Source: an uncultured Mycoplasma sp.
GTDB lineage: Bacteria > Bacillota_I > Bacilli_A > RF39 > UBA660
Direction: 5' to 3'
Length of the DNA stretch: 34,633 nucleotides
Assembly: GCA_964499645.1 (NCBI GenBank)
Contig: CAZCLV010000002.1
Location: forward strand, 1 to 34,633
Part shown: in pieces, positions 17,585-34,550 of the stretch
How positions within the stretch are numbered: position 1 is the first letter of the stretch
Layout of the letters: each line of letters starts with the position of its first letter
Translations under genes and position numbers: made by a program
Notes under the pieces: model-generated
Databases searched by the model: none
Seen by the model: the letters and a program-made list of their open reading frames with translations, nothing else
Told to the model about the DNA's origin: nothing

Positions 17585-19114
17585 CTATACTGATTTTTTA
17601 ATTCTTTGTAAGTATTCAATACATTCTTTCATAGCGCCTTTTCCAAAATTTGTATCTAAATATGTAATAAATGGATCTATTTCATCACGTATAAATGAAA
17701 TATTTAATTGTTCAAATTTACGGAATATTTTTTTGGCGATAAAGTAATCTATTGCTGCTATTTCATTTCCACCACATGCTACATATACCGGAACAAATGT
17801 CCTCAATTGTTTCATAATACGATTCCCAAATGCTATTCTAAAATGTTTTATAACATAATCATCCATTTCTTTTATTTTATCTAAGTTTGAATCTAAAACA
17901 GGATGTTCTTCAATAGCTGTTTTGAATAATGATTCTAAATAAGTGGAATTAATATCCATTGCTTCTTGTTCTCTACATTTAAATGGATCTATTTTACTAT
18001 TTATATCTATTGGCATTGCACGGTCATATACTTTATCTGTAACCATAAATGTTGAATCATCGTTATTGATTGTACCAATATACCATAAGTTACCTGGTAA
18101 TTTTAATTTTCCACCAATAATTCCTTTGGGATCACTTGCCCAAGAGTTAGTAACAAGTTCGATAATCCATTCATCTCTTGAAGGCATTTCCAGAATTGAT
18201 AGCATTTCTGCAAAGTAATATTCTACACGAGCAATATTCATTTCATCTAGAATTATTGTATGGACATCATCATCGTAATTTGAACGATATAATTCTGCTA
18301 AAACATCTGATTCATTAAACTTTTTAGTAAATTCATTGAAGTATCCTAATAATTCTGTTTTATCTCTCCATGAAGGTTCTACTGATGCTATACATGAGTT
18401 ATTTTTAACAAATTTACCCCAAGCATATGCTAGTGAAGTTTTCCCAGTTCCAGATATACCTTGTAAGATAATTAACTTACCACAAGCAAGAGCCGCAATA
18501 AATGGTCTTAATAATTCAGGATCATAATATAAATGTAATTGCCCTGCTGAATAGCATCTAAAATTATCCATCAATTCTTCTAAAGAGAAGTTATTACCAT
18601 AATTTTTAACTTTATATTCTTCATAATCTTTATCAATCTTTGTAAGTTTAGAAAATCTAATATTTGGATCTTCTTTTGTAGCATCTTCTGGTTTTTCTTC
18701 TGTTGCTTCATCTTGTTCTTCTTCATCAGGTTTTAATCCTAAATGAGATACTTTCATTGCCATAATCTCATTTTTTTCTTTTAGTAACTTTTTTACTTGT
18801 CCATTTAATCCAGCTATTTCATCTAATAGTTCTTCTTGATTTAATTTACCTTTTCTTGATCTTAGGATTCTTTTAATTCCAAAAATTATTAGTAGAATAA
18901 TTAATCCTACAATAATTACTAGTGTTAAAACTGATAATCCAACAAATAACCATTCTGGTCCATTAAAGCTACCTTTATAATTATTAATTATTGATAAATA
19001 GTCATTATAATTAACCATTTGAGTTATTCCTACTCCTATTCCTTTGAAGATTACCATTACTCCATCAAAGAATATAGAAATAAATTCATAAAAAAATCTT
19101 AAAAATGTATTCAT
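17585..19114 (-). CDS. Membrane-anchored McrB-family AAA+ NTPase (GTPase-type)
   Basis: Two N-terminal TM segments, then a coiled coil and acidic linker, then the AAA+ core. Core motifs: Walker A LILQGISGTGKTSLA; HTIILDEMNIARVEYYFAEMLSILE (compare McrB IIDEINRANLSKVFGEVMMLME); NLWYIGTINNDDS..VTDKVYDRA (compare NVYIIGLMNTADRSLAVVDYALRRRF). McrB sequence recalled from memory. Confidence 0.7.
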   Translation of the reverse strand: MNTFLRFFYEFISIFFDGVMVIFKGIGVGITQMVNYNDYLSIINNYKGSFNGPEWLFVGLSVLTLVIIVGLIILLIIFGIKRILRSRKGKLNQEELLDEIAGLNGQVKKLLKEKNEIMAMKVSHLGLKPDEEEQDEATEEKPEDATKEDPNIRFSKLTKIDKDYEEYKVKNYGNNFSLEELMDNFRCYSAGQLHLYYDPELLRPFIAALACGKLIILQGISGTGKTSLAYAWGKFVKNNSCIASVEPSWRDKTELLGYFNEFTKKFNESDVLAELYRSNYDDDVHTIILDEMNIARVEYYFAEMLSILEMPSRDEWIIELVTNSWASDPKGIIGGKLKLPGNLWYIGTINNDDSTFMVTDKVYDRAMPIDINSKIDPFKCREQEAMDINSTYLESLFKTAIEEHPVLDSNLDKIKEMDDYVIKHFRIAFGNRIMKQLRTFVPVYVACGGNEIAAIDYFIAKKIFRKFEQLNISFIRDEIDPFITYLDTNFGKGAMKECIEYLQRIKKSV

Positions 19115-19117: not shown

Positions 19118-21250
19118 CTACTCTCCTCCAAAATCCCTAATTTTATCTGTAATATTTTCACAAATAACTTTATCATATAGTTCTTTTGGTATTTGTGAAA
19201 GGTCATTTTCTTTATTAGTACTATCAACAAATATATAATCTGTTATATATAAATCTTTACGATATTCTTTTGGTACTTCAATATTTGTATTTAATACTAA
19301 TGCAAATTTATATCCAACTTTTTTATATTTTTTTATATTTTGTAAATTTTTTAATAAGTCTTTTAATGTAATTAATATAATAACATTATTTTTTGCATAA
19401 ATATTTTCTATAGTTTTTAATAAACTTTCTAATTTCTTTGTTTTTGTATATATACTTGTTGGAATATATACAAAATATTTTCTATCAAAGTTAGATAAGT
19501 TCATATCATTTATTAATTGAATAGATAATAATGTAGTTAATACTGTCATCTTATCTTCTGCTACTATTCCTTCATTATAGGTTTTATCAATAATGTAATC
19601 ACTGTAGACTTTGCTAAATGAAAGGTTATGTTCTAAATCTACTGCAAACATATCTTTTTTTGGTAACTCAATTAGATTTAAATTAAACATATTTGTTTCT
19701 AATTTTTTTAATAAATAATCTGTCACTTCAAAATAGTGCTTTTGTATTTTCATTATTTCATCAACAATATAATTAACTTTTTCTTTATCCCAATCCAGTT
19801 CTTTTGAATATTTTATTAATTCTTTTTTATAAAATTCAAATTTTGCTTTGGCATCAGTAATTGAGCTGTTTCCTTGTTCAATATTTGCAATTAAAATAAA
19901 TATTTTAGCAAACTTTTCAACTTTATCTTTATACTTTTTATCAGATTCTTTATAATTTTTTACTAATTCATCACTTATTTTTTTAATTATTTTTTCAATT
20001 TTTAAAAATAGTTTTTTTACTACAAATTCATTATTCTTATCATAATAAGTATTATAGTATTTAACACTAATATAAGTATTTTTAAATGTGTCTTTTATTG
20101 AAGATTCATTAACCAATAGCTTTTTATTTTCCATTATAGTATTTATTAGTTCTTCTAACTCATCTTCTTTTATTTGAATTACTTTATCAATAATATTTTT
20201 GCTTTTTTTATTTGATTTGCTATTTTTTAGCATTTCTAAATTAATAGTAGATTCTGCTTCAGTAGAAGTTTCTTCTTGTTCTTCTAATATTTCTACTTCT
20301 TCTATATCTTCTTTATCAACTTTTTTAGGACTTTTAATTTCATTTTTTGCTATTTCAAGAAATGTATCATCTATTTCAGATAAATCAACTGGAATAACTC
20401 TATACATAGATGTTTTTTCTAATTCATCCTCAGTAAGTTCTACTTCATTTTCTTCTATTGAATCTACTGATTTGTTTTCATTATTTAAATTATCAATTAA
20501 TTCATCTTTGGCTTTTTTAATAAATTCATTATCCATATCAACTGGAATTGTCCTATAAATAGCAGTTTTTTCTAGTTCTTCATTTTCTTCTTTAACTGGT
20601 GTTTCTATTTTAACTGCAATAACTTCCTCTTTTTTTTGTTCTTCATCATCAAAGAAGTAATTCTTTTTTTGTTTTTTATTTTTAGTTTTATTTTTTGGAA
20701 ATAATTTATCTACATATTTGTTTATTGATAAAAAATAATTTTTTTGATCTTGCTTTTTTCTAAATAATAAATTAAATATAAATAATGTAACAATAAGTGC
20801 TACTAAAACGCTTGGATTAAATAATGTTCTTCGGAATATGCCAAAGTTATGTAGAACTTTTACAACTTTTCCTATAATTTGGTCTTCTGTTATAGGGGCA
20901 TCTTTTGCATTATTAGCATCACCACGTGTTACATATTTCCCTTTATATACTTCTATAATTCTATGTGTTATATAATCTCCATTTAGTTTATAAGTAACAA
21001 CATCATTTAGTTTAGGGTTTGATGTTGATTTTACTATTATCCAATCACCAGCATTTATGGCATCTGCCATACTACCAGTTTGAACTTCAAATATTGAATA
21101 TCCAAAGAAATCAGCATAATCATTATGAAAAATTCTTATTTGAATACTTGTATATATTGAGATTAATAAAATAATACTAAATATAAATATTAATATATTT
21201 AATAAAAAGTTAATAATTTTTTCTATAATATTCTTTTTATTTGACTTCAT
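19118..21250 (-). CDS. SipW-type signal peptidase fused to a cytoplasmic extension of about 545 aa
   Basis: TM1, then the full S26B set VQTGSMADAINAGDWIIV, VVTY, YITHRI, TRGDANNAKD, then TM2 (LVALIVTLFIFNLLF). After TM2 comes a long K/E-rich region and an alpha/beta C-terminal domain. The track start at 21265 is TTG with no RBS. ATG 21250 has GGAAGGG upstream. Confidence 0.8.
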   Translation of the reverse strand: MKSNKKNIIEKIINFLLNILIFIFSIILLISIYTSIQIRIFHNDYADFFGYSIFEVQTGSMADAINAGDWIIVKSTSNPKLNDVVTYKLNGDYITHRIIEVYKGKYVTRGDANNAKDAPITEDQIIGKVVKVLHNFGIFRRTLFNPSVLVALIVTLFIFNLLFRKKQDQKNYFLSINKYVDKLFPKNKTKNKKQKKNYFFDDEEQKKEEVIAVKIETPVKEENEELEKTAIYRTIPVDMDNEFIKKAKDELIDNLNNENKSVDSIEENEVELTEDELEKTSMYRVIPVDLSEIDDTFLEIAKNEIKSPKKVDKEDIEEVEILEEQEETSTEAESTINLEMLKNSKSNKKSKNIIDKVIQIKEDELEELINTIMENKKLLVNESSIKDTFKNTYISVKYYNTYYDKNNEFVVKKLFLKIEKIIKKISDELVKNYKESDKKYKDKVEKFAKIFILIANIEQGNSSITDAKAKFEFYKKELIKYSKELDWDKEKVNYIVDEIMKIQKHYFEVTDYLLKKLETNMFNLNLIELPKKDMFAVDLEHNLSFSKVYSDYIIDKTYNEGIVAEDKMTVLTTLLSIQLINDMNLSNFDRKYFVYIPTSIYTKTKKLESLLKTIENIYAKNNVIILITLKDLLKNLQNIKKYKKVGYKFALVLNTNIEVPKEYRKDLYITDYIFVDSTNKENDLSQIPKELYDKVICENITDKIRDFGGE

Positions 21251-21287
21251 ATTTACCCTTCCCAATCATATCTTTATTCTATTATTA

Positions 21288-21380: not shown

Positions 21381-21992
21381 CTATTTTAGAAAGTCTTTTT
21401 CGTCTTCTTTTATATTATCTTTTGGTTGATCATTTGAGTCTGCTTTTTGTTTTTTTTCAAATTCTTCTTCATCTTTACTATATTTTATTTCAACTATTAA
21501 CGAATATATTTCATAAATAAAAATCATAAAGCTTGGTACAAGGATCATAAATAAAAAGCCCCATTGTGATTCTACTATTCCTAAATAAGTTCCTATTTTT
21601 TCATATACTTTTGTGGCACTACCTATAATAAATTCTGCATCATAGAATGAACCATTTTCATATGAAAAAGCATTGTCATCAGGAAAAACTTTTCCAACAG
21701 TTCCAAAATCTACTGTTACCTTGCTCTTACTATCTACTTTATAAGCAAACAATTCATCACCAGGATTAATTTCACTTAATTCTTTACTTTTTACTAAAAT
21801 AAGATCTCCTTTTTTATACTTATCAGATGAAACTTCATGTTTTAATATTATTAATGAAGTATCATTTATTTGTGTAACTCCATACTTATTAAAATTCCAT
21901 AGCAATATTGTCATTCCTATTGCAAATGAAAAGAATGCTACTGCTAAAATTCCTATAATAATTTTTTTTATTGCCTTACCTATTTTTTTCAT
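21381..21992 (-). CDS. SipW-like pseudo-peptidase (same topology, catalytic Ser/His motifs absent)
   Basis: N- and C-terminal TM segments. Scaffold motifs KKGDLILVKS and PGDELFAY are retained. The position of SGSM reads HEVSSDKY, and there is no THR(I/V) or GD.N..D motif. Confidence 0.5.
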   Translation of the reverse strand: MKKIGKAIKKIIIGILAVAFFSFAIGMTILLWNFNKYGVTQINDTSLIILKHEVSSDKYKKGDLILVKSKELSEINPGDELFAYKVDSKSKVTVDFGTVGKVFPDDNAFSYENGSFYDAEFIIGSATKVYEKIGTYLGIVESQWGFLFMILVPSFMIFIYEIYSLIVEIKYSKDEEEFEKKQKADSNDQPKDNIKEDEKDFLK

Positions 21993-22061
21993 ACTACCAC
22001 CTTATTCATAATATCATACATAATTTTTTATATCAATAATATTGAGAAAAAAAGACTTTAC

Positions 22062-22967
22062 TTAACACCCTGTTGTGTCTGAATATGTAAACTCTGTTAC
22101 ATCATAAACTTCTTCAAAGTTTATTTTATAGAACATGTAACTAATACTTTTTTTAGGATTAATACTTAATGTTATTTCTTTTATATATCCATCTTCATCT
22201 TCTATATATGAATTAAATTGATTACTTTTTGTGTCAATTTTGAATTTACTTGAATCCCAAGCTATTTTTATACATTTTGCAGTTTTATAGGAATTTGATA
22301 TTACTAATTCTCCATATTCTGAATTATCTTTATAGAATAAATTAACTTTTTCTTCTTTTGAATTAATTTTATGAAGCAAAAAGTTTCCACTTAGTGTTTT
22401 ATGATATGGTGCTGTAGTATTTACTTCAATATTTATGGTTAAATCCTTTATTTCATAGTTTTCATCAGTCAAAACAATATCAAAATGTAAATCATTTACT
22501 GATACCTGACTTATATAATCATATTGATTTGTCTCACATTCGTTTTTATCCATTTTAGATGTATCCACACCATCATTAGTATTATTAATACATATTTTTT
22601 TACTTAATAGCACTCCTTCATATTGATTTGTTCCTGTATCAAATAAATTACATGTCGTATGATTTGCAGCTTCTCCATTTATTGTACAAGTAACATTATA
22701 ATTAATATCATAATCACTTATTACAGTAGGATTTAAGCTATTATTTATGCTAAAATTAACACTACCACCATTCCATAAGTTATTAACATTTTTGGTAGTA
22801 CCTATGTTTAACTGTTCACTTGAAAAATAAAAACCTTGAGACTTTAAATAGTAATTCCAAATTGAATTAGATACATATTTTGCATAAGTTATTCCATATC
22901 CTATTACTAGTGCAATAGCAATAACTAATCCTGCTAAAAGTATATATCTTTTAGTCCTTTTTCTCAT
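22062..22967 (-). CDS. Secreted TasA/camelysin-class protein (small-class signal motif), Cys-containing
   Basis: MRKRTKRYILLAGLVIAIALVIGYGITYAKYVSNS is a basic N-region, H-region and SipW-type motif. Start moved from 22997 to ATG 22967, which has a GGTGAT-N3 RBS that overlaps the TAG stop of the upstream gene. Confidence 0.6.
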   Translation of the reverse strand: MRKRTKRYILLAGLVIAIALVIGYGITYAKYVSNSIWNYYLKSQGFYFSSEQLNIGTTKNVNNLWNGGSVNFSINNSLNPTVISDYDINYNVTCTINGEAANHTTCNLFDTGTNQYEGVLLSKKICINNTNDGVDTSKMDKNECETNQYDYISQVSVNDLHFDIVLTDENYEIKDLTINIEVNTTAPYHKTLSGNFLLHKINSKEEKVNLFYKDNSEYGELVISNSYKTAKCIKIAWDSSKFKIDTKSNQFNSYIEDEDGYIKEITLSINPKKSISYMFYKINFEEVYDVTEFTYSDTTGC

Positions 22968-22975
22968 AAAATCAC

Positions 22976-23521
22976 CTATTTTCCTATATTTTGCCAACTC
23001 TTTATTTCTATATTAATGTAATCTACTAAATTAGAATATAAATCACTTGAATATTCACTATCAAATTCAACTTTTAGTTTATAATTATCAAGTTCTTGAT
23101 CAGAGTATCCCATTTCTAAAATTGGAGAATTGCACACTAATTCATTTTCAGAATTGCGTGTATATGTTTCATCACAAGTCATAATTAAATCTTCCTCGTT
23201 TCCATCTATATAATATAGTCTAATTATTAAGGGTACAAAATGATATGTTTTAATCGTCATTTGATATTTTACTGAAACATTACTTACGGTACCAGAAATA
23301 TTATTACTTACAGAAAATGGGTATTCTTTTTGTACCCCTGGCGTTAAATCTACCAACGAGAAATGAAGTTGATCTAACTTCTTTGCATCAAATATGAATT
23401 TGGCAATATTTTGATTTGCAGACATATTGCTAGAACTTGTAAAAAGGGAATATGTTATTCCAAAACCAAATATTAAAAATACTAATACTATTAAAATAAT
23501 TAAAATTTTTTGTTTTTTCAT
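22976..23521 (-). CDS. Secreted TasA/camelysin-class protein (small class, 181 aa)
   Basis: Signal ...FGFGITYSLFTSSS. Strands EYPFSVSNNISGTVSNVSVKYQ and the terminal YINIEIKSWQ fit the TasA-like pattern. RBS GGGAGGA. Confidence 0.6.
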   Translation of the reverse strand: MKKQKILIILIVLVFLIFGFGITYSLFTSSSNMSANQNIAKFIFDAKKLDQLHFSLVDLTPGVQKEYPFSVSNNISGTVSNVSVKYQMTIKTYHFVPLIIRLYYIDGNEEDLIMTCDETYTRNSENELVCNSPILEMGYSDQELDNYKLKVEFDSEYSSDLYSNLVDYINIEIKSWQNIGK

Positions 23522-23535
23522 ATTATCCTCCCTTT

Positions 23536-26500
23536 TTATTTTACAATAAATAATTTTTCTAATGTTCCTACTTTTTTTGTATCATTATATAATTCAAAGA
23601 CAAATTTATAACCATTGTTCTCAAAATTTTGCGGTATAAGATTTAAACTAAATGTATTTTCACTTCCATCAAAATTAAGATTTGAAATATAATATAAATT
23701 TGTTGAAGATGCTTCTAAATCATCAGAAATATAATTTTTTAAATCTTCTACTGAATAATTTTGATTAAAAGCAGTTAATTGATCTTTTTTATATAAAGAA
23801 ACTCTCAAACTTGGATTTGTAAAATTGCCATCTGCTACTACTTTAAATTGAATATTTTGTTGTTCAGAACTCTTATCTATTATTCTATTTGTATCATCCA
23901 TGCTTATATTAAAACTATGTTCTGTAGTTAAGTATGTGCTTACTATATTAATTGGAATACTTACTTCTACGTCACTTAAATTATCATAATATATACCATC
24001 ATTTGAAACATAGCTTGATATTTTTAAATAGTATAACCCTTCTTTCAAATTTGCATTGTTCTCTTTCGTAATTATTGTAATTGTTTTAGTAGTATCTTCT
24101 ATTCCATTATTTAAATCTATATGAACTTTATTATCATTTTCTGGATAATATTCATTTGTTCCCACTTTTACAATAATATTTTTTAAATAGTCATCATTTA
24201 CTGTTAAACCATGATTATCTACAATTTTTAATACTATTCCAACTTCTTTATTTTCATAAGTTGTATCATTTATTTTTGAATCATTTAAATATTTGTAATT
24301 TATACTACTTGTTATATTTACATTTGTTGTTGAATTACTATTAAATTGAATATTACCACCTACATAATCAGTAGTAATATTTAAAGAAGCCGATGAACTA
24401 TTACCATTAACGGTAGAGTAAATATTAAATGGTTTTATTGTATTATATAATGTTGGTCTTATATTTATATTATTTGAATTATGTAATTCTAAATACATTA
24501 AAACATTTTCATAATTTTTTGTAATATTTGTATTTGATAAATCTACAACAATAGTAAAACTTTCTATAATTGTTCCATTATCATAATAATTGCTTTCTGT
24601 ATAATTTTTTTTTGTTGATCCTGTACCTTTTTCATTAAATAAAGTAAATGGATAAGTTGCTTTTTTTATACAATTTGTATCTTCAATAGAACAACTATTA
24701 TTAAAATTAAATTCATCATTTTCTGTTATTACTTCATATTCATATACTTTTGAGGTAATTTTATCTATTAATGTTAATTTTGTTCCTAATGGCAATAATA
24801 TATTTGAAACAAAATTATGGGTGTTTCCATTAATTTCATCAGAATTTTTTGAATAACTTACATTTAATGTAATAGTGGATTTATTTGTAATATTATTATT
24901 GGCATTCAAATAATTGTTTTCATTTCTACCTATTGTTAGTTTAGTCTCTGTATATCCATCATAAATAATATAATTAGTATTTACAAATGTAACATAATCA
25001 CTATTATCAATTACTTTTGCATAAATTATATATTTTTGATATTGATTTATAACAAATGGGTCAACATAATCTATCCAATTATTATCTGAAAGTTGATTTA
25101 ATGCATTATTACTTAATACTTCAGTAGTAATATAATATCCCACACTCTTTATTCCTGATAAATTATCTTCCGCTTCAATTGTTATTGTTTGAGTTCTATC
25201 TATGTAAGTATAACCCGGTGTTAAACTTAATGTTTGGTATTCCTTATCATTAACTTTTATTGCTATAGAGGCACCTGTTAAGTCTAAAACTAATATATCA
25301 GTATTTAATATTTTTGCTTCATCATTTATATCATTGGTAGCTTTAACTTTTACATAAATAATATAGGACCCTTCATCTGTTATTTGAACTATATCACTAT
25401 ATGGCTCCCAACTAGTTATTCCTTCAATTTCTAAATTTGTTAGTTTTCTATCACTGATATAATACTCTTTTTCTATTAATGGATTTAATGCATCCATTTC
25501 TTCTATACTAAAAGTAATATTATTTTTAAGTTTAACTGTTTTTAGTTCATCACTTAAATTATTCCATGAATATGTTCCTACATGAATACTAGCAATAGGA
25601 TCATTACTATCATCTATAAATAATATTGGTAATGAATTTTCGTCATAAACCCAAACATTATTTTCATTTATTAATAGATCATTAAAACTAACAAATTCAC
25701 TATATAATAAATTACTAGTTACGTAATTTTTTGTTTTTAAATTATTTATTGTAGTAATATTAAATGATTCATTATAAGTTTCATCATCTATTGGATTTAA
25801 GCTTGTTGAATATGTATTGGTAAATGTCACCGCAGTATTTGCTATTACTCCTATAGCGGTGCTATTATTTATATCAAAAACATTATTTATTGAAATAGAG
25901 CCGGTATTATCATTAATTATTCCAATAAAACCGCCAATATAAGAACTATTTATTGTCCCTGTATTATAGCATTTTGATATTAATATATCATCTTCACTTT
26001 TTTCTATTGTTCCTACCAATCCACCACTTGTATGAGAGCTATTTATATTTCCTGTGTTATAACTTTGGTTTATACTTAATAAGTTAGTTGTTGTTCCTAC
26101 TAAACCTCCGCTTATTTTTTGTCCATATATATTAGCTTTATTTATCACATTTTCTAAAAGCGTATTATTGCTTTTTCCTATTATTCCACCTGTAACAGAA
26201 TAATTATATGAAATGTGATATTTTACATTAGTAAAAGTTACTGATGCATTTTCTGATGTTGAAGATGCTAGAATATCAATATCATCAGCAATAGTAGTTC
26301 CTAAATCAATATCAAAACTACCATTTGTAACTACTACTCCATTTATTTCTATTAAAGTGTTTTCATCGGTAGCATTATTTAAAGTATAAGTTCCTGTTAA
26401 TGAAGTGCTTAAAATCTCACTTCCAATAAATGGAATATTATTAGTTAAATTAACATTGCTTGTAGAACTAATTTCATTTAATTCAATTGGTAAAATATTA

Positions 26501-27228
26501 GCAGTTAATTCAATATTTTTTGTGATATTTGTTTTCCCAATTACATATCCCTTAAATAAAGTATTTTTAATATTAGCATTTGTAGTACTTGATGCAATAC
26601 CTCCAGTAATAATTCCACCATTAATAACTGAATTTTCAACATATAAGTCTGTAATTTCACCTTGTAAAGAAGTGAATAAACCTAGTTCTTCTTTTTCCTC
26701 ATCTGTAATATATAATCCAAGTATTCTATATGATCTTCCATCAAATTTTCCTTTAAATCCATTTAAAGTTTGAAATAAGTTTATTGATCCAACTTCTGGT
26801 TCTGTTTTTAAACTATCTGCATAGTATTTTCCAGTATAATCATCAACAAAATATGTTGTGTCATTTAATAAATAAGTTACTTTATCTGTTGCATCATAAG
26901 AGAATACACCATTATTAATGATGATATCATTTCCTAAAACAAAATAATTGTTTTCATAATTATTTTCTTGGAGTTGTTCAGCAAAATATGCAAGTTCTGC
27001 TCCATTTGATATTACATATGGATTATTACTTGCTCCAGTTCCTCTTTTATAGCCAGTAGCAATACTTCCATCCCAAGGTAAAACTGTATCTAATACATTT
27101 CTGTTTTTATATCTTGATAAAGTCGGTATAGCAATTGGCAAAGCACATAATAAAAACAAAGCTATTATTGAATAAGCTATCTTTTGAAATCTTGATAAAT
27201 TGTTAATAAATTTTCTCATTCTTATCAT
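23536..27228 (-). CDS. Giant (1230 aa) surface protein with GLUG-motif repeats and multiple beta-rich domains
   Basis: N-terminal anchor/signal ...ALPIAIPTLSRYKNRN (small-class motif). NPYVISNGAELAYFAEQ precedes repeated G-G-(L/I)-(V/I)-G motifs (TGGIASS, TGGIIGKS, SGGLVGTT, SGGLVGTI, IGGFIGII). About 800 aa of N/T/S-rich beta sequence follow. No C-terminal LPXTG. Confidence 0.7.
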   Translation of the reverse strand: MIRMRKFINNLSRFQKIAYSIIALFLLCALPIAIPTLSRYKNRNVLDTVLPWDGSIATGYKRGTGASNNPYVISNGAELAYFAEQLQENNYENNYFVLGNDIIINNGVFSYDATDKVTYLLNDTTYFVDDYTGKYYADSLKTEPEVGSINLFQTLNGFKGKFDGRSYRILGLYITDEEKEELGLFTSLQGEITDLYVENSVINGGIITGGIASSTTNANIKNTLFKGYVIGKTNITKNIELTANILPIELNEISSTSNVNLTNNIPFIGSEILSTSLTGTYTLNNATDENTLIEINGVVVTNGSFDIDLGTTIADDIDILASSTSENASVTFTNVKYHISYNYSVTGGIIGKSNNTLLENVINKANIYGQKISGGLVGTTTNLLSINQSYNTGNINSSHTSGGLVGTIEKSEDDILISKCYNTGTINSSYIGGFIGIINDNTGSISINNVFDINNSTAIGVIANTAVTFTNTYSTSLNPIDDETYNESFNITTINNLKTKNYVTSNLLYSEFVSFNDLLINENNVWVYDENSLPILFIDDSNDPIASIHVGTYSWNNLSDELKTVKLKNNITFSIEEMDALNPLIEKEYYISDRKLTNLEIEGITSWEPYSDIVQITDEGSYIIYVKVKATNDINDEAKILNTDILVLDLTGASIAIKVNDKEYQTLSLTPGYTYIDRTQTITIEAEDNLSGIKSVGYYITTEVLSNNALNQLSDNNWIDYVDPFVINQYQKYIIYAKVIDNSDYVTFVNTNYIIYDGYTETKLTIGRNENNYLNANNNITNKSTITLNVSYSKNSDEINGNTHNFVSNILLPLGTKLTLIDKITSKVYEYEVITENDEFNFNNSCSIEDTNCIKKATYPFTLFNEKGTGSTKKNYTESNYYDNGTIIESFTIVVDLSNTNITKNYENVLMYLELHNSNNINIRPTLYNTIKPFNIYSTVNGNSSSASLNITTDYVGGNIQFNSNSTTNVNITSSINYKYLNDSKINDTTYENKEVGIVLKIVDNHGLTVNDDYLKNIIVKVGTNEYYPENDNKVHIDLNNGIEDTTKTITIITKENNANLKEGLYYLKISSYVSNDGIYYDNLSDVEVSIPINIVSTYLTTEHSFNISMDDTNRIIDKSSEQQNIQFKVVADGNFTNPSLRVSLYKKDQLTAFNQNYSVEDLKNYISDDLEASSTNLYYISNLNFDGSENTFSLNLIPQNFENNGYKFVFELYNDTKKVGTLEKLFIVK

Positions 27229-27323
27229 ATTTACTTTTCCTTCTTAAACTTTATTATGGCATAACACCCTATCATACTATGAAATTAGTATAACATAATT
27301 TGACATATTTTGCATTATAATTG

Positions 27324-27352
27324 CAAGAAAAAACCTCCTTTTTTGGAAGTTA
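27324..27352 (-). terminator. Terminator/attenuator hairpin overlapping the stop of the 542-aa gene
   Basis: Minus strand AACTTCC / GGAGGTT (one G-U pair), loop AAAAAA, followed by TTTTTCTT. Confidence 0.5.
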
Positions 27353-28978
27353 TTCTTTTTTATTTTCTGCTTTATCAATTTTTTCAACTTGACTCATAAA
27401 CCATATTTTTTCAACAGTTGTTGGGCTATCTTCTATTTCTTTAATTCTTAATAATAATTGAATTTTACTTATTAATTCATTTAAATTTTCAGCACTTAAT
27501 GATTCTTCTGTTAAATTAATATTATCTAATCTATATTTATTCATTATAATTCTTGCTAAATTTGAATCTTCAAATATAGCTATTCCATTTAATATTATAT
27601 TAGTAGGATTCATTGCAAATAAATCAAAATTATCACTATACTTAATTAATTCATCATATTTTGTTATTTCAAATACTCTTTTTAATCCTAATTTTTTATA
27701 GTAATCAAAGCTATAATATAAATGTAATACTTCTGACATTGTTAAAGAAGCACTTAATATTGGAGAAATCTTATTTTTTATATATTCTTCATCAAAAGCC
27801 TTATATAGTTCATATATTTCGTTTGCTAAACGTACAGAATCAATTTTTGCTTGTCTTAAATCAGTAGAATTTTTTATTCCAAATAATCCTAGTTTGCCAG
27901 TAAATATTCTTTTATTTAGCTTTTCTAATTTTGCTTCTTTATCTTCAATTTTTTTCTCAACATTGGATAATTCTTTATTTGTTTCTTTTGTATTTCCTGT
28001 TGGAATTAGCTTTTCATATTTTGATTTAAAGTCATTAATTAATGGTAAAAATTCTAAGTAATTACTGTATTCTTCTACATTTGTTTTTAATTTAGCTAAA
28101 CTTTCATAAAATTTATCCATTTGAATTTTATCATCTAAGTCAATATTTTCAATCATAAGACTATTATAAGTTGAAGTTCTTACCTTGCTATCTTGAAAGT
28201 AATTTGTAATATCTATTTCACCTCGTTTAGCAAAATCAATAATATCACAAATATTTTCCTTATCTGCTAAGTTAAGTTTTTTATATACCTCGGCTAATTT
28301 TCTTAAGCAGTCATCATAATTAGATATATTATTTTTAAACATTTCTTCATTTTTTAGTTTTAAAATATAATTATTAAATCTATTTTTATATTTATTAATT
28401 AACTTCCTAAAGTTTAATTCAATATGCCTAATTATTTCAGGATTAACCCAATATATTTTTTCAAACACTTTTGATACATTATCATAATTTTTATTTTTAC
28501 TATTTCTTGCTGCCAAAAATGAAGTCATATATTCATTAACATAACAGGTATAATCAAAATCTGACTCAACAAGGTTTATTCCTGCTGATTCAAATTTGTT
28601 TAAAAATTCATTTATTATGTCATTTAAAGAATTAAAATTAAAATCATAATAATGAAGAATTTGATATATTAAAGTATCAAATCCCATCTTTTCAATATAA
28701 ATATTTGATGGGTTCAATATAAATTTAATATGTTCTAATGCATTAAGTTCTTCATTTAATTTAGCTACATCTTTTTGAGAATTTTTTATATTAAAAGATT
28801 TACTTTTTGTATCTATATATTTTTTTACACTTTTTTGATATTCACTATATTTTCCAATTATTGTATCTATTTTTTCATTATATTTCTTTATATTTGATTT
28901 AGTATTAGTTGGTAAAACTGAAATTAGTGTTTTCTTTGCTTCAATATCCTCATTGATAAAGTCTGAAAAATTAGTCAT
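27350..28978 (-). CDS. Hypothetical cytoplasmic, predominantly helical/coiled-coil protein (542 aa)
   Basis: No TM segment, signal peptide or P-loop. K/E/N-rich heptad-like stretches. ATG lies 1 nt after the stop of the 47-aa ORF, whose last codons supply AAGGAGGAAAA as the RBS. Confidence 0.7.
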   Translation of the reverse strand: MTNFSDFINEDIEAKKTLISVLPTNTKSNIKKYNEKIDTIIGKYSEYQKSVKKYIDTKSKSFNIKNSQKDVAKLNEELNALEHIKFILNPSNIYIEKMGFDTLIYQILHYYDFNFNSLNDIINEFLNKFESAGINLVESDFDYTCYVNEYMTSFLAARNSKNKNYDNVSKVFEKIYWVNPEIIRHIELNFRKLINKYKNRFNNYILKLKNEEMFKNNISNYDDCLRKLAEVYKKLNLADKENICDIIDFAKRGEIDITNYFQDSKVRTSTYNSLMIENIDLDDKIQMDKFYESLAKLKTNVEEYSNYLEFLPLINDFKSKYEKLIPTGNTKETNKELSNVEKKIEDKEAKLEKLNKRIFTGKLGLFGIKNSTDLRQAKIDSVRLANEIYELYKAFDEEYIKNKISPILSASLTMSEVLHLYYSFDYYKKLGLKRVFEITKYDELIKYSDNFDLFAMNPTNIILNGIAIFEDSNLARIIMNKYRLDNINLTEESLSAENLNELISKIQLLLRIKEIEDSPTTVEKIWFMSQVEKIDKAENKKE

Positions 28979-28979: not shown

Positions 28980-29123
28980 TTAATTTTCCTCCTTTTCTTC
29001 TTGAGATATTTTCTTTTCTTCTAAAAATTCAAGAAAGCCCACAATATCTTCATAAACTTTAATTAATTCTTTTAAACTAAGAAGAGACATGTCAAAATTT
29101 ACTTTATTTTCTTCTTTTTTCAT
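28980..29123 (-). CDS. Small acidic protein, 47 aa (not in the ORF track), translationally coupled to the 542-aa gene
   Basis: My translation: MKKEENKVNFDMSLLSLKELIKVYEDIVGFLEFLEEKKISQEEKEEN. RBS AAAGGTGAT-N3-ATG. Starts 20 nt after the stop of the upstream subunit gene. Confidence 0.55.
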   Translation of the reverse strand: MKKEENKVNFDMSLLSLKELIKVYEDIVGFLEFLEEKKISQEEKEEN

Positions 29124-29143: not shown

Positions 29144-30229
29144 TTATTCATAACCCGCTAAATCTTTAAAGAACTGAATTGAAATATCAATAACAGCACC
29201 CTTTGAGTTAGTTACTAAGCTATCCATATCTTGTCCTTCTATCCAAACATAAACCCTTACTTTTGTTATACCATTTGGTATTTGAAATAGTGGTTTATCA
29301 AAATCTGTAATATTTTCTTGCATTTTAAAGTGTTCTAAGTCTGTTGGAACCCCACTACCAGCATGACCATTTGCAATTTCCAAAAATTCTCCTTCTTTTA
29401 TAACTGCAAATGTCGGAGTATAGATTCCATCTATCAGCTTTACTCCATATTTTAGAGCTCTTTCTATTGATGATTGAGAATGATTTCTACTATTAGGTTC
29501 ATAAATAATCATTTCACAATTATTATTGCATTTAATATTTTGAATCATACTTAAATCTGATTTAATAGGAACACTTCCTATCTTTACAAATCCAAGTCTT
29601 ATTGAATTTATTGATCCATCTGCATCATCAAATATTTCTTTATCAAATGTAATTGCAGTTTCTTTTGTTAAATATAAATTATCACTATATGGTGAACCAC
29701 TTGCATTTTTTAAGAAAATATCAAATGCAATAAATGAATTTCCATCACTTGCTTTATCTTCATCTAACAATTTAGTTGAAAGAAGTTTTCTTCTTGTAGT
29801 CTTACTAGCATTAACCTCAATATTAGAAGCAGCAAATACATCAAATTTATAATTATCTTTTGATGATATTCCATTTGTAGAAACGGTATATAATCCTCTT
29901 GAAGCCCATTGATTTGTATGATTTGGATAAGTATTATTTAAGTTATATATTAAATTGTCTCTCGAAATTTCAACTTTACTTCCAAAACCTTTTCCATCAA
30001 ATGATATATATAAACCACTTTCATTAGATACTATCATGTTGAAGAAGTTTACTTTTACATTTAAAGAAGCATAAAACCATGCATATGTTGCTGAAATTAA
30101 CAAAACTCCTACTAAGAAAGTAAATATTAAATTACGATTAAAATTATTTTTTTCTTTATATTTATAATTTACAAAATAATTTTTTAATTGTACTAACTTA
30201 GATTTGACCTTATTAATATCTTTTTTCAC
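29144..30229 (-). CDS. TasA-class fibre subunit paralogue 3 (YAWF class, 361 aa, no Cys-loop tail)
   Basis: ...LLISATYAWFYASLNVKVNFFNM, FIAFDIFLKNASGSPY, IKCNNNCEMIIYEPN and ITKVRVYVWIEGQDMD align with the two larger paralogues. GTG start with AGGTG 8 nt upstream and no in-frame ATG nearby. Confidence 0.65.
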   Translation of the reverse strand: MKKDINKVKSKLVQLKNYFVNYKYKEKNNFNRNLIFTFLVGVLLISATYAWFYASLNVKVNFFNMIVSNESGLYISFDGKGFGSKVEISRDNLIYNLNNTYPNHTNQWASRGLYTVSTNGISSKDNYKFDVFAASNIEVNASKTTRRKLLSTKLLDEDKASDGNSFIAFDIFLKNASGSPYSDNLYLTKETAITFDKEIFDDADGSINSIRLGFVKIGSVPIKSDLSMIQNIKCNNNCEMIIYEPNSRNHSQSSIERALKYGVKLIDGIYTPTFAVIKEGEFLEIANGHAGSGVPTDLEHFKMQENITDFDKPLFQIPNGITKVRVYVWIEGQDMDSLVTNSKGAVIDISIQFFKDLAGYE

Positions 30230-30344: not shown

Positions 30345-31916
30345 TTAGTCTCCAGCTGGCTCTGGTATTGAAAATACTCCACCAATTATATCACAATATC
30401 TTTTTGTTATTCCAGTAGTGGCACATGCTGATGATTCCCATTTACCAAATGAAGTTGTACATGTTATTTCTGACGTTGGCACTGTACCTCCAGTACAAGT
30501 TCCTGTTGTTACTGTTTCAGTAAATATTCCACCAATTGATTCGCAGTATGTTTGTGTTGTAGCAGATGCAGTAATTGCACAAGTTCCTAATCCATCAGGT
30601 TCTCCATCTCCATTAGTGTCCCCAGATGGTGTCCAACTTCCTAATGCTACTTCACATGCATATTTTGTTGTTGGAACATTTTCAGTGTTTCCACCTGCAC
30701 ATGATCCTAATGTTAATGCTGGTCCATCGTATTCTATATCTGCTTCTTTAAATCTTTCTTTTGTAAATCCAAATTTAATAGATATTTTTTTACCTATTGA
30801 AGCAAAATCATAGTTATCAATATCTTGTCCTTCAATATAAACATATACTCTTACTTTTGTAATACTGCTTGGTGCTAATGTCATAAAGTCTGGACGATTA
30901 GTTCCTGTATATTTTTTTTCAGTATCAGTAAAGAATTGATAAGCATTTAATTTCCAAGTATTTCCTGCTCCAAGTGTTTCTTGTGTAGGTATATAAGTAT
31001 TATAATATCCATCATACACATCAATATTATCTGATGATGCAATTGCATCTTTTACTGCATATGTGTTATATGTAGTTCCATCGCTTACTGAACTACAAGC
31101 ACCACTATATGAAGCAATCTTAGTAACATCAAGTCCTGTTTCTAATCTTTTTAAACAAGATGTATTGTACCAACCGATTGCATTGCTTTCATGTTTATCA
31201 TCGTTTGGTTCCCAAATTTGTGCTGTTCTACAAATTCCTGTTACATCTGAATTACTAGTACAAGTAATACCTGTAATTTTACTTACATCAGTAGTAGTTC
31301 CATCTACACGTCCAATTTGTGCAAAAGCAACTCTTACTGAATTTTCTATTCCTGTATTAGCTACACCATCAGATGCTACTGTAACTGCTGAGTCAGTAGT
31401 TAAGAAAATTGCTTCCTCATCTTTTGGTTCAAGTTCAGTAATATATTTTGAACCTGTCGTATTTCTAATAAATAAATCGAATGCCACATATCCTTTATGT
31501 TCTGTTCCATTACTTGAAGCATTATCAATCTTACTAGCTAAAAGTCTATAGCCACCAGGTGTTGGTGTAAGACTGGCTTTTTCAAATAAGATCATTCTTG
31601 AAGAATCTGCATCCATTTGTCCATTTGATGACATTGGAAGCAATCCTTCTCCACCCCAACTATTCTTATGGCCTGTATATGAAACAGTATCTAAATTAGC
31701 TTTACTAATTGTAATGTCTGTTCCCCACTTACTACCATTTAATGATAATAATAAACTTTCTGTTGATGCTATTTCTACATCAAAACTATTTACATTAACA
31801 TTTTGCAGACCAATAAACCATGCATATGTTGCTGCTACTAAAAGTATTGTGCTAAATAAGCAAGTTAATATTAGTCTTTTGATACGCTTTGAACGCTTTG
31901 TTTCTTTTCTTTCCAT
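30345..31916 (-). CDS. TasA-class major fibre subunit paralogue 2 (YAWF class) with C-terminal cysteine-loop module array
   Basis: Signal ...LLVAATYAWFIGLQ. The core is highly similar to paralogue 1. The C-terminal ~120 aa holds repeated C..GG..VPT...C....G.W and C......YC...GG.F modules, plus a TSP3-like loop DTNGDGEPDG. Confidence 0.7.
   Translation of the reverse strand: MERKETKRSKRIKRLILTCLFSTILLVAATYAWFIGLQNVNVNSFDVEIASTESLLLSLNGSKWGTDITISKANLDTVSYTGHKNSWGGEGLLPMSSNGQMDADSSRMILFEKASLTPTPGGYRLLASKIDNASSNGTEHKGYVAFDLFIRNTTGSKYITELEPKDEEAIFLTTDSAVTVASDGVANTGIENSVRVAFAQIGRVDGTTTDVSKITGITCTSNSDVTGICRTAQIWEPNDDKHESNAIGWYNTSCLKRLETGLDVTKIASYSGACSSVSDGTTYNTYAVKDAIASSDNIDVYDGYYNTYIPTQETLGAGNTWKLNAYQFFTDTEKKYTGTNRPDFMTLAPSSITKVRVYVYIEGQDIDNYDFASIGKKISIKFGFTKERFKEADIEYDGPALTLGSCAGGNTENVPTTKYACEVALGSWTPSGDTNGDGEPDGLGTCAITASATTQTYCESIGGIFTETVTTGTCTGGTVPTSEITCTTSFGKWESSACATTGITKRYCDIIGGVFSIPEPAGD
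30781..30841. repeat. 61-nt tract identical to 32379-32439 (paralogue 2 copy)
   Basis: The string gatatttttttacctattgaagcaaaatcatagttatcaatatcttgtccttcaatataaa is present at both positions. Flanking sequence diverges. Confidence 0.9.
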
Positions 31917-32045
31917 AAATACATCCTTCTTTCAAAAAATTACGATTAACAATAAAGATTTTTTTAATTGTTATTAAATTAGAAAATACCAAGAATAAAA
32001 GAAATAGTATATCATCAATATGGTACTCTCTATATTATCAATATA

Positions 32046-32073
32046 ATTGTATCATAAATATATTTAATGTCAA
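32046..32073 (-). promoter_or_regulatory. Strong sigma-A-type promoter for paralogue 2
   Basis: Minus strand TTGACA (32073-32068), 16-bp spacer, TGA-TACAAT (extended -10, hexamer 32051-32046). Lies about 130 nt upstream of ATG 31916. Confidence 0.55.
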
Positions 32074-32123
32074 TATAATTTGTCTCATTTTGTCGAAATT
32101 TATTTTAGTTTTTATTGCAAAGA

Positions 32124-32146
32124 AAAAGGTAATTTAATTACCTTTT
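32124..32146 (-). terminator. Rho-independent terminator/attenuator after paralogue 1
   Basis: Minus strand AAAAGGTAAT / ATTACCTTTT, loop TAA, followed by TCTTT. Lies 13 nt after the stop at 32159. Confidence 0.6.
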
Positions 32147-32158
32147 ATTATTTTATTA

Positions 32159-33748
32159 TTATTGTTCAATTATACTCCAAGTGCCGCCTGCTGCTGTACA
32201 ATATGCTTTTGTATTTCCAGCACAAGTTCCACCTTCTCCATTAGTTGTCCAAACTCCACCTGCTGTTTCACAAGTTGATTTTGAGTCAAATGTAATTGTT
32301 GTATCCTTACATACTCCTGGTCCTGTATAATTAATATCTGTATCAGTAAGTCTTTCTTTAGTAAATCCAAAATTAACTGATATTTTTTTACCTATTGAAG
32401 CAAAATCATAGTTATCAATATCTTGTCCTTCAATATAAATGTATATTCTTACTTTAGTAATACTATTTGGAGCTAATGTCATAAATTGTGGACGATTAGT
32501 TCCTGTTAAAAATTTCATTGTATCTGTAAAATATGGATAAGCACTTAAGTAACCGCTTGTTTCTGTGTAAGTACCATCTATTGTATCGCAATAGTCTTTA
32601 TTAAATCCTTCACATTTAGCAGGAGTTGTTACTGTATCACCATCCATAACTGCTGGTGTCCAAATACCATAAGCTGATAAGCATTTTTCTTTGCTAGTTG
32701 GAACAGATCCACCGGTACATGTACCATTTATTGTTGTTCCAGTATAGCCATTATAATCTGTACCATCATAAATATCTACATTATGTCCATTAGAAATATC
32801 TTTATTTACAGCATATGTTCTATATGTTGCATCATTAGTAATTGTATTGCAAGATCCACTATATGAAGCAATCTTTGTTACATCGCTTCCTGTTCTTTTT
32901 AAGCAAGAAGTATCATACCAACTAATTGCGTTTGCTTCATGTGCTTTATCATTTGGTTCCCAAATTTGTGCTGTTCTACAAATTCCAGTTACTCCACCAT
33001 CATTAATTGTAGTAACTTCATCTTCTCCTGAACCTGTTGTTGTAGTGTCAGATTTACATGTAATACCTGTAATTGTTGATGCAGTTGCAGTTGTTCCTAT
33101 TACACGACCTATTTGTGCAAAAGCAACTCTTACTGAATTTTCAATACCTGTATTAGCTACGCCATCTGATGCCACTGTGACTGCTGAATTATTTGTTAAG
33201 AAAATTGCTTCTTCATCTTTTTCATTTAATTCTTTAATATATTGAGTACCAGAAGAATTTTTTATAAATAAATCAAATGCCACATATCCTTTTCTTTCAG
33301 GATCCACTGTTGAAACTTCTTCTCCGTCTACTGTTTCAGTAGTAATATTATAATTTTTAATACGACTAGCCAAAAGTCTATATCCACCTGATGTGTTAGT
33401 TAAACTAGCTTTTTCATATAGTTTCATTCTTGAGGCAGTTGTGTCCATATCACCAATTGTTGACATTGGTATTAGTCCTTCTCCACCCCAACTATTTGTA
33501 TGTCCACTATATGATACGTCGTTTAATGTTGATTTAGAAATATCAACACTTGTATCCCAATCTGCACCATTTAATGACAATAATAAGTCTTCTGTTGTTG
33601 CAATATTAACATCAAAACTTGAAACACGGACAGTTTGTAGTCCGATGAACCATGCATATGTTGCTGCTACTAATATAACTGCACTAAATGCACAAATCGC
33701 AATAAGTTTTTTTACACGTTTTCCACGCTTTTCATTTTGTTTTTGCAT
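32159..33748 (-). CDS. TasA-class major fibre subunit paralogue 1 (YAWF class) with internal and C-terminal cysteine-loop modules
   Basis: Signal ...ILVAATYAWFIGLQ. Core motifs: GYVAFDLFIKNSSGTQY, GICRTAQIWEPN, ITKVRIYIYIEGQDIDNYDF. One module pair is inserted at residues ~341-397 and one is appended at residues 478-529. RBS AAGGAGAA. Confidence 0.7.
   Translation of the reverse strand: MQKQNEKRGKRVKKLIAICAFSAVILVAATYAWFIGLQTVRVSSFDVNIATTEDLLLSLNGADWDTSVDISKSTLNDVSYSGHTNSWGGEGLIPMSTIGDMDTTASRMKLYEKASLTNTSGGYRLLASRIKNYNITTETVDGEEVSTVDPERKGYVAFDLFIKNSSGTQYIKELNEKDEEAIFLTNNSAVTVASDGVANTGIENSVRVAFAQIGRVIGTTATASTITGITCKSDTTTTGSGEDEVTTINDGGVTGICRTAQIWEPNDKAHEANAISWYDTSCLKRTGSDVTKIASYSGSCNTITNDATYRTYAVNKDISNGHNVDIYDGTDYNGYTGTTINGTCTGGSVPTSKEKCLSAYGIWTPAVMDGDTVTTPAKCEGFNKDYCDTIDGTYTETSGYLSAYPYFTDTMKFLTGTNRPQFMTLAPNSITKVRIYIYIEGQDIDNYDFASIGKKISVNFGFTKERLTDTDINYTGPGVCKDTTITFDSKSTCETAGGVWTTNGEGGTCAGNTKAYCTAAGGTWSIIEQ
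32379..32439. repeat. 61-nt tract identical to 30781-30841 (paralogue 1 copy)
   Basis: See the partner feature. Further identical runs of about 35, 32 and 25 nt occur elsewhere in the two genes. Confidence 0.9.
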
Positions 33749-33761: not shown

Positions 33762-34463
33762 CTATTTTTCTACAAATTCTGAATTAAAATTCATGTGAAT
33801 TTTAATTTCTCCACCCAAAATATTATCATTACATTCTGGATCGTTTCCTTCTAGCCATAAGACAATTGTATATTTTTTTATGTCACCAGGTCTGAATTTT
33901 TCTACATGGTCAAGTACAACCATTTCATCAGATTCAAATGCTACTGTATCTTTTTCTGGTTTCCCACTTGCAGATTTTTTAGCATATGTAACATATTCTT
34001 TGTCTTTGTAAACTCTGATTCTTACAGCCTCATCAACATTTTTTATAACATCATCAATTACTATTTCAGACCAGTAGTCAGATACGTCCTTGCCTTGATT
34101 TTCAATATAAAATGTATAAGCTAAATAGTTTTCACCATTATGTGAGCCATTATGTTCTGTAATATCCTTTGGCAACCACTTATACGAAATATTATCAAAA
34201 TAATCGACAGTTTTCGCATATAACTCAGATCGAAATAATTTGTAATCAGGATTATCATAAATAATAATTCCACGATCTAAATATAAATTTCTGTCTAATG
34301 TTATACTAAAATTACCACCATTATAAATAATACCAACTACTACATATAAAATGAAAAGTAATAATATAAAGATTAGTAATGCTAACTTAATGATTTTAGT
34401 CGTTCTTTTTTTTCGTTTTACTTTGTTAGCGCTTGTTAAAATCTTACTATCCTTGATATCCAT
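33762..34463 (-). CDS. Membrane-anchored TasA-fold-like protein without a SipW cleavage motif (candidate fibre anchor/initiator)
   Basis: Basic N-tail (KVKRKKRTTK) plus one TM segment. No (T)YAWF motif: the sequence after the TM reads GIIYNGGNF. The ectodomain shares YLAYTFYIENQGKDVSDY and YTIVLWLEGNDPECND with the subunit paralogues. First gene of the operon. Confidence 0.55.
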   Translation of the reverse strand: MDIKDSKILTSANKVKRKKRTTKIIKLALLIFILLLFILYVVVGIIYNGGNFSITLDRNLYLDRGIIIYDNPDYKLFRSELYAKTVDYFDNISYKWLPKDITEHNGSHNGENYLAYTFYIENQGKDVSDYWSEIVIDDVIKNVDEAVRIRVYKDKEYVTYAKKSASGKPEKDTVAFESDEMVVLDHVEKFRPGDIKKYTIVLWLEGNDPECNDNILGGEIKIHMNFNSEFVEK

Positions 34464-34522: not shown

Positions 34523-34550
34523 ATTATAACACTAGTAAAATAATTGTCAA
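34523..34550 (-). promoter_or_regulatory. Strong sigma-A-type promoter of the fibre operon
   Basis: Minus strand TTGACA (34550-34545), 16-bp spacer, TGT-TATAAT (extended -10, hexamer 34528-34523). Lies about 60 nt upstream of ATG 34463. Confidence 0.6.

Follow-up and report, generated by a model that had tools for sequence, protein, structure and literature searches.

A portable four-cysteine unit on two tandem, presumably exported paralogues encoded near a SipW-type signal peptidase gene

Two neighbouring genes on a 34,633-nt stretch of DNA from a very AT-rich, uncultured Mycoplasma sp. (contig CAZCLV010000002.1; the whole stretch is called the window below) raise the question of what small, cysteine-bounded modules are for when they sit at different places on otherwise related proteins, and of what kind of structure carries them. 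The genes, termed P1 (32159-33748, 529 amino acids, aa) and P2 (30345-31916, 523 aa), lie on the minus strand, as do the cluster genes around them and the parts of P1 and P2 discussed below. P1 combines an N-terminal signal or transmembrane segment with a conserved core of ~400 aa and two four-cysteine (four-Cys) units, one internal and one C-terminal, and P2 has a core of the P1 type, no internal unit and two C-terminal ones. The best explanation as a whole, to which we would give a rough probability of 55%, is that these are long-diverged tandem paralogues of the cluster's main secreted structural subunit, and that they serve in an extracellular assembly that is processed by a SipW-type peptidase and in which exchangeable domains point outward from the major subunits.

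A first-pass annotation of this DNA, made from the letters alone, had described two types of module, a and b, each bounded by cysteines. All eight of the peptides it listed (8/8) are found where it had placed them, with one a+b pair inside the core of P1, another at the P1 C-terminus and only C-terminal modules in P2. The two types strictly alternate in P1, P2 and 12 homologues (32/32 units examined), with 3-17 residues linking a to b, and the real unit is therefore the a+b pair, 44-64 aa long and with four Cys. Alignment of the 32 units from 14 proteins yields the consensus G-T-C-T-G-G-x-x-P-T-x4-C-x2-A-x-G-T-W-(linker)-C-S-G-x-T-x2-Y-C-x2-I-x-G-T-F, in which C3, C15, G20, W22, C27, Y36, C37 and G42 are invariant and successive Cys are spaced by 11-14, at least 11 and 8-11 residues. 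The annotation had named irregular spacing in homologues as grounds for discarding the module; the spacing is conserved across all 32 units. Two details of the earlier description had to be corrected on this definition: P2 has two a+b pairs and no more (aa 404-466 and 472-516), instead of about 2.5, and VCKDTTITFDSKSTCETAGGVW, listed as a b module, occupies the a-position of the P1 C-terminal unit and is a degenerate a-half.

The internal unit of P1 (32561-32725, aa 342-396, running from GTCTGGSVPTSKEKCLSAYGIW to KCEGFNKDYCDTIDGTYTE) lies at a core position termed site C and scores an independent E-value of 5.6e-17. The P1 C-terminal unit (32174-32317, aa 478-525; 2.6e-11) is the one with the degenerate a-half, C-terminal unit 1 of P2 (30519-30707, aa 404-466; 1.1e-09) has an extended linker between the tryptophan and the third Cys, and C-terminal unit 2 (30369-30503, aa 472-516; 2.6e-16) is near-consensus. 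A profile built solely from the 28 units of other genomes recovered all four window units at full length and, at E≤10, matched nothing further among the open reading frames (ORFs) of the window; given these matches, a chance origin of the window units is excluded on sequence grounds. When the unit profile was run exhaustively against 1.84 billion representative sequences, only 55 matches were obtained at E≤1e-3, and full units were confined to the family of P1 and P2.

Burial or disorder with no paired cysteines was the other outcome that the annotation had held to be fatal to the module. AlphaFold predicts a confident fold for the unit alone (32-row alignment), with a predicted local distance difference test score (pLDDT) of 90.0 and a predicted template-modelling score (pTM) of 0.63, in the order b1(2-5)-a1(12-17)-b2(21-23)-b3(26-28)-a2(34-39)-b4(42-45). 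The complete P1, modelled with a 121-sequence alignment, reached pLDDT 86.3 and pTM 0.80, with values of 84-92 in the internal unit and 68-84 in the C-terminal unit. By these models the unit folds autonomously and is more than a disordered stretch or a simple loop. It has no known counterpart in the libraries searched: Foldseek returned no match of the unit in the PDB at E≤10 and nothing in BFVD at E≤1e-3 (seven rows at chance level), a profile-to-PDB sequence search left the unit unmatched and paired the homologue profile only through its DUF5011 tails, and neither core nor unit was covered by any Pfam or NCBIfam family when P1, P2 and their paralogues were scanned along with homologues rich in modules.

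The cores that carry these units can be aligned across their whole length, and the two proteins align end to end (54% identity by BLASTP with gaps; 64-67% on aligned columns) and run on into Cys-rich tails past a conserved FGFTKER motif. The residues of P1 at aa 342-396 form an insertion without counterpart in P2. The description of the cores as near-identical cannot be maintained, as they are ~65% identical and the identity of P2 to P1 (64%) falls within the range of homologues from other genomes (55-68%). Both are members of one family by core profile (713 and 711 bits) and by its marks, namely a signal motif [ST][YF][AS]W[FY], a core of ~400 aa in which four Cys are invariant, and, at the C-terminus, the motif Y-x-Y-I-E-G-Q-D-x-D-N-Y ... 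F-G-F-T-K-E. The four conserved core Cys noticed in the first reading (C231, C257, C282 and C300 in P1) are invariant in the 121-sequence alignment, in which the strand following the signal motif is also strongly conserved. Between C231 and C257 lies core loop A of P1 (32978-33058), which holds a 25-aa Cys-free variable insertion of low confidence in the model (pLDDT 57-62), and between C282 and C300 lies loop B (32849-32905). In P2 loop A is in a short form (C219 to C229, 31230-31262), and C254 and C274 mark the core Cys positions of loop B (31095-31157).

Mapping of unit positions onto a module-free member of 404 aa (P0010) bears out the idea of a small portable module, as homologues carry the unit at three core loops and in C-terminal arrays. 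Loop A hosts it in P0002 and P0009 and loop B in P0009, while site C, located behind Y-D-G-x2-Y-N-x-Y, holds one unit in P1, P0007 and P0031 and two in P0011; the C-terminal arrays of homologues comprise 1-4 copies. A different Cys-rich insert of ~60 aa, apparently helical (…CKAACGAEDTSCPTTCEGVTTTCNTACDAETDPALKKACLRAC…), occupies loop B of P0032 and P0105, and loop B can thus take up Cys-rich modules of different kinds. The annotation had also pictured modules shuffled between P1 and P2. There is no sign that this happened recently: DNA repeats occur only in core segments (70-83% nucleotide identity), the module DNA is unrepeated, and none of the four window units has another window unit as its nearest relative, and recent DNA-level shuffling was rejected on these grounds. 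Intragenic transfer is possible in P0002, whose loop-A unit is 69% identical to the protein's own second C-terminal unit, a weak signal given such short sequences.

The unit is one of several decorations in a large family. A search with P1 yields at least 1999 relatives at E≤1e-3, and those named among the matches listed are called hypothetical or are named merely for DUF5011 at the C-terminus. The decoration counts refer to the best 120 of these matches: 89 end in DUF5011 (PF16403; 5.7e-19 in homologue P0014), 2 in PF09479 (Flg_new) and 1 in leucine-rich repeats (LRRs), and 28 are without any recorded Pfam domain, including tail-less members of ~400 aa and carriers of Cys units; the units themselves occur in 13, and the C-terminus emerges as a hot spot for alternative domains. 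In a set of 76 sequences (75 fetched loci and the window) there are 168 strong family members, at 1-6 copies per sequence and most often two in tandem, and since only 8 of the 168 carry units, the Cys unit is a minority alternative at a variable C-terminal 'display' position. When one genome per species was scanned, 237 relatives turned up, every one in a metagenome-assembled genome of an uncultured organism; most of these genomes are labelled Bacilli, Mollicutes, Tenericutes or Bacillota, a few bear other labels, and their sources are anaerobic digesters and the guts of humans (Hadza), chickens and rabbits as well as the rumen. The gene cluster described below was likewise encountered only in uncultured low-GC Bacilli of guts and digesters. 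P1, P2 and their 361-aa and 233-aa paralogues have no Pfam match at E≤1, and a literature search on the core family or on SipW clusters in uncultured Bacilli found nothing relevant. The core family is thus large and unannotated, and both it and the unit are undescribed in the libraries and literature searched.

How the cysteines are paired bears directly on what the unit can be. The number of Cys in the mature protein (counted after the signal motif) is even in 266 of 268 family members, at 4, 6, 8, 12, 16, 20 or 28 and mostly in multiples of four, and every Cys is therefore likely to have a partner, for which we take these counts to be strong evidence. The parity agrees with the annotation's view of a module stabilised by disulfides or metal through Cys pairs, and it favours disulfides. 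For the core, the pairs C231-C257 and C282-C300, which would close variable loops that are the very insertion sites A and B, are proposed because the 361-aa paralogue (29144-30229; core hidden Markov model E 8.6e-41; ATYAWF signal) has a loop A of the form CNNNC, with only N-N-N between Cys1 and Cys2, and has lost Cys3 and Cys4 together.

Within the unit, the telling feature is a sub-element, C-x3/4-G-G-x-W-x3-6-C, that recurs in unrelated proteins and spans the junction of a and b (C15 to C27). As this element occurs on its own elsewhere with just two Cys, a nested pairing of C15-C27 and C3-C37 is suggested by analogy, and the Cys-bounded a and b loops of the first reading are probably mis-phased; the C3-C15 and C27-C37 pairs of that scheme would be the alternative. 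With nested pairing, b1 would replace a missing return strand beside b4 and so bring the two ends of the unit together, and adjacent ends would make the unit tolerant of loop insertion as well as of end-to-end arrays. The whole unit may have arisen by tandem duplication of an element of ~20 aa made of a Cys-bearing short helix, a G-G-x-W/F strand, a turn and a Cys-bearing return strand.

The two-Cys element has also been seen in other settings. In family members of three loci it is inserted, in the form C-x4-GG-x-W-x4-5-C, in a loop of the C-terminal DUF5011 immunoglobulin (Ig) domain, with one copy each in L022 (8372-9985) and L049 (8332-9939) and two in L051 (8230-9936), and it is thus portable on an even smaller scale than the four-Cys unit. 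A separate secreted family without Pfam cover (P0127, P0141, P0143, P0148, P0162, P0169 and P0171) combines a doubled element with a further Cys-rich segment in the pattern C-x3-GG-x-W-x6-C-E-G-I-x4-C-x3-GG-x-F-x2-C-A-S-A-C-R-x-D-P-D-A-x2-C..., in which the second half of the element likewise has its own Cys (GGxF-x2-C). Three phage-like proteins (P0126, P0129 and P0132) carry the element VPTTKEECEAAGGTWNAETKTC three times near the C-terminus; one has a ClpP-type protease domain (PF00574, 5.7e-41), and the three look like prohead protease/scaffold fusions.

The case for an assembled structure comes from the signals and the gene cluster. The signal or transmembrane segment of P1 (33647-33715, aa 12-34, VKKLIAICAFSAVILVAATYAWF) is hydrophobic and ends in the family-wide S/A-T-Y-A-W-F, and P2 has an equivalent with ATYAWF (31815-31883, aa 12-34). 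The motif [ST][YF][AS]W[FY] is found in 268 of 277 members, most commonly as VSTYAWFIGM. The signal sequence of TasA, the fibre subunit of Bacillus subtilis, is cut within T-W-A-A-F after the first alanine, and the mature TasA N-terminus AFNDIKS was verified against the structure 8AUR; by analogy, putative cleavage in the present family would follow T-Y-A. The likeness is one of motif, as the model for SipW-cognate signal peptides (NCBIfam TIGR04088) left P1 and P2 unmatched at E≤0.1.

An archaeal/SipW-type signal peptidase I is encoded with these proteins (19118-21265). Its N-terminal ~165 aa match TIGR02228 (6.7e-18; 65 bits against a cutoff of 51.85) and Peptidase_S24. They are fused to a Lys/Glu-rich, apparently cytoplasmic extension of ~540 aa that is kept in 18 of the 76 loci. 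A second, stand-alone SipW-like signal peptidase of 195 aa (15850-16437) has a weak S26 match, and related peptidase ORFs occur in 41 of the 76 loci. The first gene of the cluster encodes a 233-aa distant paralogue (33762-34463), for which jackhmmer converges on the same 288 hits as for the 361-aa protein. The 361-aa gene is followed by a 47-aa acidic ORF with no evident signal (28980-29123), which precedes the 542-aa gene, recurs in the same place among the gene calls of L002 and L076 and probably counts as a genuine small member of the cluster. The remaining genes (21381-28978) encode a 542-aa protein without evident signal, a secreted giant of 1230 aa, proteins of 181 and 311 aa that both bear G-I-T-Y-S/A signal motifs, and a 203-aa membrane protein. 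The 181-aa protein (22976-23521) defines a conserved family of its own (480 hits, all hypothetical and without Pfam domain; C116 and C130 invariant) and shows a weak TasA-like motif, DL-x-PGD-x-KEY-x-FSVSN (hhalign probability 17.8%). Gene order is the same in L002 and L076, and the cluster genes co-occur in 41-57 of the 76 loci by iterative searches, many of the loci being cut by contig ends. The window is chromosomal and also encodes ComEC, ComEA, FtsW/RodA, SMC, peptide deformylase and a sigma factor.

We infer a fibre role and surface exposure from this gene context. The proteins would be exported and cut after T-Y-A by the cluster's SipW-type peptidase, the conserved, beta-rich core of ~400 aa would act as a scaffold that most likely polymerises, two pairs of invariant Cys would close two variable loops of this core, and variable 'display' parts would be grafted onto the scaffold, a DUF5011 Ig domain in most relatives and the four-Cys mini-domain here. 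The mini-domain itself would probably face outward, rigid and resistant to proteases, and serve in adhesion or in varying the surface.

Several observations weigh against this explanation. Foldseek with the full P1 model found no PDB match at E≤1e-3 (best probability 0.03) and did not list TasA, and homology of the core to TasA was rejected, as hhalign of the family profile with TasA gave a probability of 0.09% and neither Pfam nor Foldseek provided a match. The habitat also appears anoxic. A search for thiol-disulfide oxidoreductases, recommended in the first reading, was negative: Pfam and NCBIfam scans detected no such gene or thioredoxin-fold gene in the window, and a crude screen for CxxC motifs, a weak negative, revealed no thioredoxin-type gene in the 76 related loci (~1.2 Mb). 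Finally, some carriers of the two-Cys element resemble phage head-assembly proteins, which are cytoplasmic, where disulfides would not form.

The absence of any fold match between P1 and known fibre subunits would equally suit proteins that do not polymerise into fibres, and it is conceivable, if rather unlikely, that P1 and P2 are monomers or form a two-dimensional lattice, like a surface layer, on the cell surface, held there by an uncleaved signal-anchor or by the wall, with the Cys units and the Ig, LRR and Flg_new tails acting as ligand-binding or spacer domains. In line with such a coat, the AlphaFold model runs a single unbroken helix through aa 6-34, ATYAWF included, the SipW-cognate signal model is unmatched, and LRR and Flg_new tails are typical of surface adhesins. 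These points are offset by the co-conservation of one or two SipW-type peptidases with small paralogues that bear the same motif, a hallmark of processed, assembled systems, and by the several tandem 'major' copies with minor paralogues, which resemble pilus or fibre loci.

The units might also bind metal through four Cys (zinc or iron) rather than be locked by disulfides, an arrangement that would suit a reducing, anaerobic habitat. Each unit has four invariant Cys, most Cys totals in the family are divisible by four, the surroundings yielded no Dsb-like gene, and the two-Cys element is present in probable cytoplasmic phage proteins. Furthermore, Firmicutes tend to keep Cys out of exported proteins and generally avoid exported disulfides (Daniels et al. 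2010, PMC2823432), in agreement with the annotation's remark that extracellular disulfide-rich proteins are unusual in this group. Metal binding is nonetheless improbable: the units, with Cys spacings of 11-14, at least 11 and 8-11, have no CxxC or CxxH knuckles, two Cys suffice for the element in L022, L049 and many unrelated proteins, and the core Cys are also found as simple pairs. A reading of the modules as artefacts of composition, in which low-complexity tails are rich in Cys, Gly and Thr by chance and lack a defined fold, is effectively refuted, despite tails rich in G, T, S and A and a Foldseek search that found no known fold, by the eight invariant positions in 32 units from 14 proteins, by E-values of the independent profile down to 5.6e-17, and by the confident AlphaFold fold together with Cys parity.

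Composition also marks out the two genes. P1 and P2 are richer in G+C than their neighbours, as had been judged by eye (0.33-0.34 against 0.18-0.30 in the other genes of the window), and the cause is compositional and not foreign DNA. G+C at third codon positions (GC3, 0.106-0.109) is at background level, the excess lies at second positions (GC2, 0.48-0.49) and G, A, T, S, P and V make up 47% of residues, from which the excess is read as an effect of amino acid composition; horizontal transfer as its source was ruled out by the background-level GC3. Of the thrombospondin-type-3-like calcium loop pointed out in P2, the motif itself stands and the assignment does not. DTNGDGEPD (30594-30620, aa 433-441), in the b2-b3 linker of unit 1, fits D-x-[DN]-x-D-G-x-x-D and may bind calcium. 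It has no TSP_3 match in Pfam. Shuffling P2 100000 times produced the pattern 117 times, and about 280 other family members all lack it; the loop is a one-off in the family and not a feature of the module.

Other elements of the window lie beside or within the main cluster. Between it and a mini-cluster (13813-16437) composed of the stand-alone SipW-like peptidase and two proteins with TFAWF and TYSRY N-terminal motifs, there is an McrBC-like pair (16438-19114, minus strand), a 509-aa protein with a weak AAA-domain match and a 377-aa DUF2357 protein, which looks like a defence island inserted in or beside the surface-structure locus. Upstream of the 233-aa lead gene is a sigma-70-like promoter (34523-34550, minus strand; 12/12 with extended -10), and a second promoter-like site (32046-32073, minus strand; 11/12 with TG) lies in the 242-nt gap upstream of P2, which suggests that P2 may be transcribed on its own. 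Both sites are pattern matches only, and the overall number of promoter-like sites in the window is not above chance.

It is tempting to go one step further and to propose, tentatively, that the element of ~20 aa is an unrecognised, widely dispersed one-disulfide mini-fold used in the loops of Ig domains, of the fibre-like core, and of giant secreted and phage proteins, and that, once duplicated into the four-Cys form, it belongs to a set of interchangeable surface decorations borne by a so far undescribed, SipW-dependent extracellular polymer of gut Bacilli that have not been cultured. If so, these presumably anaerobic Firmicutes would have an unrecognised route to extracellular disulfides. 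Conserved, evenly numbered Cys in exported proteins of low-GC Firmicutes run counter to the rule of 'cysteine exclusion' and expose a testable gap in knowledge of oxidative folding. The repertoire of protein modules would gain a compact, loop-insertable, cross-linked mini-domain that could serve as a grafting scaffold. A large unannotated secreted family is also flagged, together with its cluster, which is probably a major surface structure of uncultured Bacilli of guts and digesters.

Among known systems, the closest comparisons are with the TasA/SipW biofilm-fibre system encoded by tapA-sipW-tasA of B. subtilis (fibre structure PDB 8AUR; PMC9674648) and with the TasA-like bundling pili of archaea (PMC9245690). 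In both, as here, the genes of the substrates are accompanied by one for a dedicated signal peptidase of the archaeal (SipW) type, and linkage to such a peptidase was found for this cluster. With these systems the cluster further shares several secreted beta-rich paralogues, major and minor, signals that end in T-aromatic-A then F and are followed by a conserved first mature strand, and a weak match to L-x-PGD-x5-F-x-V-x-N in the 181-aa protein. It differs in that the P1/P2 core is about twice the size of TasA and has four invariant Cys and grafted domains, and in that the 542-aa, 1230-aa and 203-aa genes have no counterpart in the TasA operon. Neither a profile match nor a jelly-roll fold match links P1 or P2 to the TasA/camelysin family (Peptidase_M73, PF12389; 5OF1, 8AUR).

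At the level of the add-on itself, DUF5011/Bact_surface_Ig-like (PF16403) is an alternative decoration at the same C-terminal position, as in the 89 of 120 closest homologues counted above, and differs in its unrelated sequence and its Ig fold without a Cys pattern; Pfam does not find it in P1 or P2. The epidermal growth factor (EGF)-like, knottin and thrombospondin type 3 modules resemble the unit in small size, invariant Cys framework, tandem arrays and extracellular setting, and the calcium loops of thrombospondin type 3 repeats and dockerins share D-x-N-x-D-G-x-x-D with one unit linker. The unit differs from all three modules in a topology of twice beta-alpha-beta and in having no Pfam, NCBIfam or PDB match. 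A cystine knot or knottin was rejected for its six Cys, where the unit has four invariant ones, and for the unit's predicted b-a-b-b-a-b topology, a thrombospondin type 3 repeat for want of a TSP_3 match in Pfam and given the single DTNGDGEPD in P2, and a Cys4 zinc-ribbon or zinc-knuckle because the unit has no CxxC.

In modular pilins, such as the type IV PilB and PilC of Streptococcus sanguinis, polymerising subunits carry grafted functional modules. The family of P1 and P2 shares with them a conserved assembly scaffold on which add-on domains, in loops or C-terminal, can be exchanged, and several subunit paralogues per locus, and differs from them in machinery, signal class and fold, and in an add-on that is a Cys unit of ~45 aa found at several positions and in arrays. 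The concept of a conserved assembly scaffold with swappable surface modules is thus a familiar one, to which the four-Cys unit makes a real but modest addition as a protein building block.

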